From the NCBI RefSeq assembly GCF_001677475.2, contig NZ_CP015229.1: a stretch of 64,000 nt of DNA; one strand, given 5' to 3'. The stretch's first letter is position 1, and each line of letters starts with the position of its first letter. The position numbers and the translations under genes are program-made. The DNA comes from Escherichia coli (GTDB lineage Bacteria > Pseudomonadota > Gammaproteobacteria > Enterobacterales > Enterobacteriaceae). Below are positions 41,640 to 43,230 of the stretch, in pieces. The notes below the pieces were generated by a model. The model did no database searches, was not told the origin of the DNA, and was given only the letters and a program-made list of their open reading frames with translations.

Positions 41640-42353
41640 ATGGCTGTTGTCTGTTCAGTTATCATGGTTTGCTCCCCAATTAATATTTTTCTTGAAAAGG
41701 ATAAGTTGTCACTTAAGCCCGGCTCAGTCGTTCTGGCCACCAAATGCATCAGGGAGCTGTTCCTTATGCATTATGGCAAAGTTAAAATTGTCGATATAAA
41801 CCATTCCATAGTAAGTCAATATCTGGAAAGTCAGCATAAGCTGACGAGGACTCGTCTGACTGACATTCCGCTTTACCTGTTCCTGGAACCCAACAATCCT
41901 GCGTTGGCTGCGGCTTTAATTACCAGCCAGAGATTTTACGGAGATACCACGGATATGTTTCTTATGATGGCCTGCCTGTCGCTGTTTGAATCAGATGAAC
42001 GGATGTCATTATTTTTAAGTGGATGTTTATCCAGTATAAGTGCCAAAGTCAGAGCGATAATTCAAACAGATATATCTGCAAACTGGATGCTCGGTGCGAT
42101 TGCGTTACGCCTGCATATGAGTGAGAGTTTGTTAAAGATAAAACTGAAAAATGAAGGGCATATGTTCAGTCGCTTGTTGCTGGAAGAGCGGATGCGGGTT
42201 GCTGTAAATATGTTATGTTCCCGGGATGGGTATGGACAGACAGTGGCAGAAAAATGCGGTTATTCAAGTAGGTCCTATTTTATCTCTGTATTTCACCGCT
42301 ATTATGGCTTCCCGCCAGACAGATATGTATCTATGCAAGGGCTTGATTTTTGA
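41640..42353 (+). CDS. AraC-family transcriptional regulator (prophage moron; Psr/PatE-like)
   Basis: 237 aa in a low-GC segment. The C-terminal AraC HTH pair reads MSESLLKIKLKNEGHMFSRLLLEERM...AEKCGYSSRSYFISVFHRYYGFPP. Confidence 0.8.
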   Translation: MAVVCSVIMVCSPINIFLEKDKLSLKPGSVVLATKCIRELFLMHYGKVKIVDINHSIVSQYLESQHKLTRTRLTDIPLYLFLEPNNPALAAALITSQRFYGDTTDMFLMMACLSLFESDERMSLFLSGCLSSISAKVRAIIQTDISANWMLGAIALRLHMSESLLKIKLKNEGHMFSRLLLEERMRVAVNMLCSRDGYGQTVAEKCGYSSRSYFISVFHRYYGFPPDRYVSMQGLDF

Positions 42354-42379
42354 TTTCATCTGATTATTATTTTCGGCCC

Positions 42380-42455
42380 GGCCCTTTAGCTCAGTGGTGA
42401 GAGCGAGCGACTCATAATCGCCAGGTCGCTGGTTCAAATCCAGCAAGGGCCACCA
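42380..42455 (+). tRNA. ileZ: tRNA with CAU anticodon (ileZ-type Ile2/Met-like)
   Basis: 76 nt. The acceptor is GGCCCTT/AAGGGCC, the anticodon loop is CTCATAA, the T loop is GGTTCAAATCC, and CCA is encoded. Confidence 0.85.
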
Positions 42456-42460
42456 CCTTA

Positions 42461-42541
42461 CCGCCATTAGCTCATCGGGAAGAGCAAATGACATGATAAC
42501 AGGGTTGTTGGTGCGGGGTTCGAGTCCTCGATGGCGGTCCA
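42461..42541 (+). tRNA. tRNA-like gene with aberrant anticodon arm (possible pseudo-tRNA)
   Basis: 81 nt. The acceptor (CCGCCAT/ATGGCGG), D arm (GCTC..GAGC), T arm (CGGGG-TTCGAGT-CCTCG) and CCA are all good. The anticodon region folds only as a wobble-rich stem with an 11-nt loop. Confidence 0.5.
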
Positions 42542-42554
42542 TTATCTGCATCAT

Positions 42555-42631
42555 GCGTTGTTAGCTCAGTCGGACAGAGCAATTGCCTTCTAAGCAATCG
42601 GTCACTGGTTCGAATCCAGTACAACGCGCCA
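42555..42631 (+). tRNA. argO: tRNA-Arg(UCU)
   Basis: 77 nt. The acceptor is GCGTTGT/ACAACGC, the anticodon loop is CTTCTAA, and CCA is encoded. Confidence 0.88.
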
Positions 42632-42804
42632 TACTTATTTTCCTGGCTCGCTTTTGCGGGCCTTTTTTGTATCCGCGCCACGCCCGGCGCATATCAAAAA
42701 CCACAGAGCCTTTCAGGGGTGAGCTTACGGGATGGTCAGTGTGACTTTCTCTGTGGGCTGGTCACCCCCGGGCGCAGGCTCACCCACTAAAAGGAAAAGT
42801 CACG

Positions 42805-43230
42805 ATGTTTGGTATTTTTAAAAAGAAAACCCGCAAGGCCATTACCGAAGTGAAGAAGATGGAGAACCGCGACGCAGTGGAGGCGACCGTCTGGGGTGCG
42901 TATTCCATTGCATACGCTGACGGCACCTGTGACGCGAAAGAAATCGCAGTGCTGGAGAAAACCATTGCAGCACTTCCTGCCTTTGCGCCGTTCTCCGGTG
43001 AGATTGCACAAATGAGTGCAAATATCCGCGCCCGTTATGAAGCGTCACCGCGTTCTGCCAATGCCGAAGCCCTTCGTCAGCTGGCTGATGTTGCCGGTAC
43101 TGATGATGCAGTTAATGTGCTGTGCCTGTGTCTGGATATCGCTGACCAGGACGGCATTGGCCCGGATGAAGAAGCGCAGCTCAAGAAAATTGCTCAGGCG
43201 CTGCAGTTGCCGCTGGAGCAGTACCTGTGA
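42805..43230 (+). CDS. TerB-like (tellurite-resistance TerB fold) moron protein
   Basis: 141 aa. ADGTCDAKEIAVLEKTI...DQDGIGPDEEAQLKKIAQAL is a duplicated TerB-type helical motif. Confidence 0.6.
   Translation: MFGIFKKKTRKAITEVKKMENRDAVEATVWGAYSIAYADGTCDAKEIAVLEKTIAALPAFAPFSGEIAQMSANIRARYEASPRSANAEALRQLADVAGTDDAVNVLCLCLDIADQDGIGPDEEAQLKKIAQALQLPLEQYL

Follow-up and report, generated by a model that had tools for sequence, protein, structure and literature searches.

A tRNA-like gene without a canonical anticodon arm in the second slot of a prophage tRNA operon of Escherichia coli

A tRNA-like gene between two canonical tRNAs

We analyzed a tRNA-like gene at positions 42461-42541 (+ strand) of a 64,000-nucleotide (nt) stretch of Escherichia coli DNA, referred to here as the window. 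The gene occupies the second slot of a self-contained tRNA operon in a lambdoid prophage, made up of a promoter, a tRNA(CAU), the gene itself, a tRNA-Arg(UCU), and a terminator. It is 81 nt long and reads CCGCCAT-TA-GCTC-ATCGGGAA-GAGC-A-AATGACATGATAACAGGGTTGTTGGTG-CGGGG-TTCGAGT-CCTCG-ATGGCGG-T-CCA. A preliminary description of this DNA had reported a tRNA-like gene of this length with a perfect acceptor stem, a D arm, a T arm with the loop TTCGAGT, and an encoded CCA, and this is borne out by the sequence and by a permissive Rfam search.

The 5' part of the scaffold (42461..42486, +) comprises the acceptor 5' strand CCGCCAT, U8 and A9, the D stem GCTC/GAGC, an 8-nt D loop, ATCGGGAA, that contains GG, and A26. 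It is followed by an 8-nt insert, AATGACAT (42487..42494, +), which lies 5' of the homologous anticodon stem and provides the 5' strand of an ATGAC stem. The next segment (42495..42513, +) is the hairpin G-AUAAC-AGG-GUUGU-U followed by GGUG; it is the homologue of the 5-base-pair (bp) anticodon stem of related genes and encloses only 3 nt. The 3' part of the scaffold (42514..42541, +) carries the T stem CGGGG/CCTCG, the T loop TTCGAGT, the acceptor 3' strand ATGGCGG, and the discriminator. All 7 bp of the acceptor stem CCGCCAT/ATGGCGG are paired, and T73 (U73) and the encoded CCA follow.

Standard searches pass over the gene. ARAGORN called only the two flanking tRNAs in the window, and Rfam RF00005, with default filters and gathering threshold, likewise found the flanking tRNAs and missed 42461-42541. 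With permissive filters, the gene scored 32.4 bits (gathering score 29; E = 1.3e-5). In this alignment the acceptor stem, the D arm (GCTC-ATCGGGAA-GAGC), and the T arm (CGGGG-TTCGAGT-CCTCG) were matched, and 13 anticodon-arm positions of the model were exchanged for 19 unaligned nt. Based on the alignment of these three arms, the gene is a true tRNA-like gene and not a chance match. Rfam gave no match to the tRNA-like families YrlA, tmRNA, and mascRNA. Of these, only mascRNA was listed, for the T hairpin alone and with 13.8 bits, where its gathering score is 42.5.

The D and T stems are separated by 28 nt, versus 23 in tRNA. A 5-bp anticodon stem with a 7-nt loop containing U33 and a purine at position 37 was not found in this gene by fold inspection, Rfam, or ARAGORN. 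The preliminary description had also found no canonical stem and loop, while allowing that a standard tool might fold the gene as a normal tRNA. This did not occur, as ARAGORN made no call and Rfam skipped the arm. The gene is tRNA-derived and unable to act as an ordinary decoder.

The arm can fold in only two ways, with 5-6 bp around an 11-nt loop or with 6-7 bp around a 3-nt loop. The stem ATGAC/GTTGT with the 11-nt loop ATGATAACAGG gains -0.5 kcal/mol over the open arm, and its 6-bp extension gains -1.8 kcal/mol. The stem GAUAAC/GUUGUU with an AGG triloop gains -2.6 kcal/mol and is part of the minimum-energy cloverleaf predicted by RNAfold. Thus, the fold with the 11-nt loop exists, as first described, but it is one of two weak, mutually exclusive folds.

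Homology discriminates between the two folds better than energy does. On the same scaffold, the Yersinia phage gene YeP1 has the arm C-GAUAAC-CAUUGCC-GUUGU-AGGUG, and a chromosomal E. coli homologue, X, has GACG-ACAAC-CAGGAUU-GUUGU. By comparison with these sequences, the window arm is an X-like 5' segment (GACGACAC, in the window AAUGACAU) joined to a stem AUAAC/GUUGU that encloses AGG.

Variation within the arm type of the window gene, designated E/W, was surveyed in 39 haplotypes from 128 loci. All five polymorphic arm sites fall in a 10-nt stretch, A26 plus the 5' arm segment GACGACACG. The 18-nt hairpin stretch ATAACAGGGTTGTTGGTG, both acceptor strands, the discriminator, and CCA are invariant, and about half of the positions vary in the 13-nt spacer adjoining the gene. 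When the two arm folds were compared for covariation, the changes in the ATGAC 5' strand were all transitions facing a strand of only G and U, so they keep pairing almost automatically. In the extended triloop stem, a common G to C polymorphism disrupts the second pair. As an antisense target, the complement of ATGATAACAGG has one site with one mismatch in the window, which is not above chance.

The rest of the operon is conventional. A sigma-70-like promoter, TTGATT-16-TATTAT (42343..42370, +), is recognized by consensus only, with 9/12 matches. It ends 9 nt upstream of the first tRNA, the position of the annotated putative tRNA promoter pT in phage 933W. Both flanking tRNAs named in the preliminary description are called by ARAGORN and Rfam: the first gene (42380..42455, +) is a canonical, ileZ-like tRNA(CAU) (Rfam, 72.5 bits), identical to the L001 tRNA-Ile of the NCBI annotation, and the third (42555..42631, +) is a canonical, argO-like tRNA-Arg(UCU) (71.7 bits). 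An intrinsic-terminator-like hairpin, GGCTCGCTTTTGCGGGCC, followed by a T run (42645..42672, +), ends the three-gene operon, and a homologous terminator is annotated in 933W. Intergenic gaps in such clusters are tight (1-13 nt).

The tRNA operon is flanked by open reading frames of 237 and 141 amino acids (window 41640-42353 and 42805-43230). Their counterparts in E. coli prophages, matched by position and not by protein sequence, are a helix-turn-helix protein (O157 FRIK944) and a TerB-family protein (GB089, FRIK944). Unlike in phiP27 and 933W, no stx gene lies immediately downstream of the operon. About 8 kb downstream of the tRNA cluster, window 50652-50739 (+) has a full-length match to the Rfam C4 antisense RNA (72.3 bits), a P1/P7-type immunity RNA. 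The best E. coli prophage matches to a 14-kb segment have 93-95% identity over about 60% of it.

One scaffold with many anticodon arms

We surveyed the gene that follows tRNA(CAU) in phage, prophage, and metagenome contigs. The gene in this slot has a single scaffold: the acceptor stem CCGCCAY/RTGGCGG, the D stem GCTC/GAGC, the T arm CGGGG-TTCGAGK-CCTCG, the discriminator, and CCA. This scaffold carries at least 12 distinct arms: two are those of Arg(UCG) and of Lys(UUU) with C33, and the others, at least 10, are aberrant, with 3-, 6-, or 7-nt loops. The 933W gene argN, Arg(UCG), has the canonical arm CCAGC-CUUCGAA-GCUGG, and the Lys(UUU) allele has UCAAC-CCUUUAA-GUUGA, both with 7-nt loops. 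Loops of 7 nt also occur in the aberrant alleles YeP1 (AUAAC-CAUUGCC-GUUGU) and X (ACAAC-CAGGAUU-GUUGU), which have A33, and in L384 (CCAAC-CGUAAGC-GUUGU), which has G33. Loops of 6 nt are found in L312 and L389 (GCAAC-CUCAAU-GUUGU), in L358, L386, and L396 (GCAAC-CUCGCU-GUUGU), in L399 (ACAAC-CACAGU-GUUGU), and in Y, a copy from Dryocola with a duplicated 3' strand (ACAAC-AAGGAC-GUUGA). The E/W arm of the window, AUAAC-AGG-GUUGU, has the 3-nt loop and the 5' insert. It is homologous to the (N)CAAC/GUUG(N) arms of the Lys(UUU) allele, YeP1, X, and several phage contigs. ARAGORN reports the 6-nt-loop alleles as "tRNA-???"; they are always second and are followed by Arg(UCU), Thr(UGU), or Gly(UCC).

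Scaffold and arm diverge to different extents, with mean pairwise divergences of 8.7% and 40.8%, respectively. L358 and L384 differ at 0/53 scaffold positions and 8/27 arm positions, and X and L384 differ at 1/53 and 9/28. Scaffold stems are 98.2% paired across 21 variants.

The aberrant alleles have derived marks that are absent from the Arg and Lys alleles. One is an 8-nt D loop, ATCRGGAA, followed by GAGC-A (A26), as in X, Y, L312, L358, L384, L389, L399, and E, and the window gene has it too. The window gene also has the (N)CAAC/GUUG(N) stem core with a non-canonical loop, as AUAAC-AGG-GUUGU. It lacks another lineage mark, the T loop TTCGAGG with a variable region ending in GUA. Most aberrant alleles have G as the last T-loop base, except for the window/E type, the E80 forms, and YeP1. 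In the window/E type, the sequences at these places are TTCGAGT and GGUG, matching the Arg and YeP1 scaffolds, which suggests that its 3' half is recombinant. The shared scaffold marks point to a persistent lineage of aberrant alleles that has swapped arms repeatedly, rather than to repeated fresh breakage, and they argue against a one-off decay of argN.

Two further ideas about the arm were dropped. Mimicry of 23S rRNA was considered for GAUAACAGG, which we take to be identical to a conserved 23S rRNA segment, and X, Y, L312, and L358 lack the motif. A common AGG or Shine-Dalgarno-like loop motif was abandoned given the loops CUCAAU, CUCGCU, CACAGU, and CGUAAGC in relatives.

Several members of the family were found outside Escherichia or in unusual settings. 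YeP1 (L259:2502-2576) is annotated as "tRNA-OTHER / tRNA-Pseudo-TTG" and lies directly after Q. The Dryocola clanedunensis copy (L137:7805-7884) is solitary and combines two compensatory stem changes with the duplicated 3' arm strand. Neither the YeP1 nor the Dryocola copy matched any Rfam family. In a metagenome contig (L312:~2420-2700, minus-strand orientation; AGFS01101911.1), the CAU tRNA looks degraded and receives no ARAGORN call, and the aberrant 78-nt middle gene has a perfect scaffold. The Lys(UUU) slot allele (L004:1594-1669, L403:1582-1658, L404:1579-1655) has C33 where U33 is nearly universal, as well as an A-C mismatch in its T stem, and it is without annotation in one phage record. 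Since PARIS and PrrC target tRNA-Lys, this allele may be a "rescue" tRNA-Lys that resists nucleases.

The E/W type is widespread in E. coli. Copies with 95-96% identity and the same neighbors, located between tRNA-Ile and tRNA-Arg of phiP27-like and other E. coli prophages, are the same element and are annotated by NCBI as "tRNA-OTHER," a label that means merely a tRNA-like gene without an assignable anticodon. A 45-nt arm probe matched 1818/5426 complete E. coli genomes. The exact window variant was found in none of these genomes (best match, 95.8%), and its sole exact match was one IMG/VR contig (L227). The Stx2e phage phiP27 has the element, and its GenBank record annotates only ileZ and argO; the mEp460_ev081 record and most E. 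coli genomes also leave the element unannotated. In the literature on ileZ/argN/argO and on tRNA pseudogenes of Stx phages, we found no description of it.

A conserved chromosomal homologue

X is an 81-nt homologue in the chromosomal yahL-yahM spacer, with 85% identity to the phiP27 copy. In K-12 it occupies 344634-344714 of NZ_LN832404.1 (L258:2551-2631), and it was found in 5168/5426 complete E. coli genomes, never annotated as RNA. The annotated yahM start codon falls within its 3' acceptor strand. ARAGORN labels X as "tRNA-Ser(GGA)" with a displaced anticodon, Rfam matched it to no family, and we found no paper connecting yahM with a tRNA-like RNA.

K-12 X has 0/81 differences from X in E. 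albertii, E. whittamii, E. ruysiae, and Escherichia sp. E1V33, while the adjacent 135 nt (promoter and leader) differ by 14-18% in the same comparisons (Fisher p = 6e-6 to 8e-5). In E. whittamii and E. ruysiae, yahM is deleted and the upstream neighbor differs too, and X is unchanged. By these sequence comparisons, X is under strong purifying selection. A conserved promoter, TTGACA-16-CATAAT (L258:2434-2461), matches the consensus at 11/12 positions and lies about 90 nt upstream. X is within the yahM 5' leader, and there is no terminator between X and yahM. The yahM promoter is active and IHF-repressed according to a Reg-Seq preprint (bioRxiv 10.1101/2025.05.13.653802), although its coordinates could not be tied to the X promoter.

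Possible functions and rival explanations

We tentatively favor, at a rough probability of 0.45, the reading that the gene encodes a functional, non-decoding mimic of the tRNA body, possibly a decoy for tRNA-targeting nucleases. The gene would be co-transcribed with the neighboring tRNAs. With its acceptor stem, D and T arms, discriminator, and CCA all intact, it is likely a substrate for RNase P and the 3' processing enzymes, which would excise a stable, tRNA-shaped RNA of 81 nt. Lacking a 7-nt loop with U33, this RNA would pair with no codons, and anticodon-reading synthetases would probably not charge it. Its action would be through the tRNA body, and the most plausible role is that of a decoy or competitor, aimed at a factor that binds the body of tRNAs and attacks their anticodon arm. 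Candidate factors are the tRNA-directed defense nucleases countered by neighboring phage tRNAs (Lys-UUU, Thr-UGU). Decoy action would account for the fast evolution of the arm. Within the family, the E/W subtype may have been weakened recently. A non-decoding tRNA-like RNA was among the possibilities raised in the preliminary description, and it finds support at the level of the family, where the conserved scaffold with its compensatory changes, the hypervariable arm, and the strong purifying selection on X with its promoter point in this direction.

The case for a decoy as the leading mechanism is circumstantial and draws on known phage tRNAs. Cluster tRNAs of phages counter tRNA nucleases, and it is the anticodon arm that determines both susceptibility and resistance (PMC12445682, PMC10264068, PMC11464382). 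Rescue tRNAs include tRNA-Lys(UUU) of T5 against PARIS AriB, tRNA-Thr(UGU) of the lambdoid phage 21 against P2-Old, and tRNA-Tyr against retron-Eco7 (PMC11464382, PMC12445682, PMC10264068, PMC11555353). Like these, the window gene belongs to a phage tRNA cluster, and relatives of this cluster hold Lys(UUU) in the same slot and Thr(UGU) in the next. The part that determines resistance in rescue tRNAs, the anticodon arm, is the hypervariable part of the slot family. For an RNA that conserves its body and diversifies its arm in such an operon, competition for a tRNA-directed nuclease is the simplest hypothesis. Rescue tRNAs differ in that their anticodon still works and they take the place of host tRNA that has been cleaved. 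With no usable anticodon loop, the window gene could at most compete or inhibit.

Other RNAs mimic the acceptor, T, and D body of tRNA and replace the anticodon arm, namely, the bacterial Y-RNA-like YrlA, the tRNA-like domain of tmRNA, and mascRNA. The window gene resembles them in having a tRNA body with a CCA/acceptor end and an anticodon arm that does not decode. It differs in having a short hairpin at this place and neither an mRNA-like domain nor a long stem for protein binding, and no associated protein gene equivalent to Rsr or SmpB was identified. A broader scenario can be outlined, which we consider unlikely. Lambdoid phages would use a fast-evolving, non-decoding tRNA mimic, with a constant body and a swappable anticodon-arm "bait," to block or titrate tRNA-directed immune nucleases of rival prophages or hosts, and Escherichia would have domesticated X, with its own IHF-repressed promoter, as a chromosomal tRNA-like regulator or antidote.

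Several observations weigh against a functional mimic, and many of them favor a functionless relic. In that case E/W would be a dead slot allele, derived from an X-like or Lys-like allele by duplication of the 5' strand and deletion in the loop. Its transcription, and perhaps its processing, would be due to its place between two useful tRNAs, and it would persist only by linkage and because the prophage lineage is young. Most probe-positive genomes carry an 80-nt, unannotated form in which GCGGGT, CCGGGT, or GGCGGGT takes the place of the T loop TTCGAGT, which resembles decay. The phiP27 copy has a T-stem mismatch, and the L054 copy has an acceptor mismatch. The window copy differs from its nearest relative, E81, at 4/81 positions (three in the arm and one in the D loop), compared with 0/153 in ileZ and argO; by this comparison, the middle gene has evolved faster than the flanking tRNAs. 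All three arm substitutions lie inside the 8-nt 5' insert and make both folds weaker than in the E. coli form. The arm hairpins of the window copy, at -0.5 to -2.6 kcal/mol, are barely stable, and the gene is skipped by standard tools and many annotators. At the level of the family, scaffold covariation is sparse, since the scaffold hardly varies: only two pairs change on both sides, both compensatory and both in the Dryocola copy (U7-A66 to C-G, and G-C to A-U in the T stem). The loops share no motif, which makes it unlikely that any one anticodon loop is mimicked. Frequent recombination between mosaic prophages could hold scaffolds uniform without selection on the window allele, and selection on X does not prove function of the phage E/W copies. 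There is a substantial chance that the window copy is inert. A relic does not easily account for the invariance of the acceptor strands, discriminator, CCA, and 18-nt hairpin next to a highly variable spacer, for the retention of the aberrant lineage's own scaffold marks across many arms and hosts, or for the strong purifying selection on X. For the window copy, we regard a recently disabled relic as nearly as probable as the favored reading.

Decay of the E/W subtype is thus plausible, given the loss of the T loop and the excess of changes in the window copy, but the preliminary description had proposed decay of an argN-type gene, and this part did not hold. Its background statement that lambdoid and Stx phages often carry an ileZ-argN-argO trio at this position is confirmed for 933W and many Stx phages. 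The 933W cluster (GenBank AF125520) occupies the same niche, downstream of Q and upstream of stx/lysis genes, and has the same first and third genes. Its argN shares the acceptor stem, D stem, T arm, U73, and CCA with the window gene, and the scaffolds differ at only 2/54 positions, which speaks for a pseudogene of tRNA-Arg(UCG) formed by a small indel in the anticodon arm. However, 17/29 aligned arm positions differ, and argN has 23 nt between its D and T stems, a 5-bp stem with the loop CUUCGAA, a 9-nt D loop, and G26, whereas the window gene follows the aberrant lineage in its 8-nt D loop and A26. The window arm has GAUAAC...GUUGU-NGGUG in common with YeP1, and GACGAC in common with X. It is unrelated to the argN arm, and alignment rules out an origin from argN by any single indel. 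This explanation retains hardly any credence.

A processing or punctuation element, in which the tRNA body serves as an RNase P or 3'-end signal that releases or stabilizes the adjacent tRNAs or a downstream late or yahM transcript while the arm drifts, would fit the gene gaps of 1-13 nt, the conserved scaffold with its free arm, and the position of X in the yahM leader with no terminator in between. The genuine flanking tRNAs already supply such signals, the D-loop GG and the T loop are conserved beyond the needs of RNase P, and X is conserved even where yahM is deleted. All variants keep the stem core CAAC/GUUG, so the arm is not in free drift, and we consider such an element improbable. Less probable still is an unconventional decoder, in which a loop of altered size (6 nt in relatives; 3 or 11 nt in the window copy) reads non-triplet codons or shifts frame, or becomes normal after editing or splicing. 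tRNAs of altered loop size are able to shift the reading frame, and several relatives have a clean 5-bp stem and a 6-nt loop, called as "tRNA-???" with 2-nt anticodons. Neither the length (3, 6, 7, or 10-11 nt) nor the sequence of the loop is conserved, U33 is missing even from 7-nt loops (A33 or G33), and the window copy has no loop of plausible decoding geometry. The suggestion of a substrate that needs editing finds no support, as the loops show no conserved insert and no intron-like, splice-like, or editing motif.

The existence of the gene is not new, because RefSeq already flags it as tRNA-OTHER. What appears to be new is the family picture: a cassette-like slot, a persistent aberrant lineage, and a conserved K-12 homologue with a promoter. 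An apparently unannotated K-12 gene that is perfectly conserved across the genus is unusual for a genome so well studied. Even if the window copy is only a relic, the "argN slot" is documented as a cassette-like hotspot, with a fixed scaffold on which anticodon arms are exchanged. The view of phage tRNA clusters is now shifting toward counter-defense loci directed at tRNA-cleaving immune systems. If the favored reading is true, a family member that keeps the tRNA body and has abandoned decoding would represent a different strategy, competition instead of replacement.

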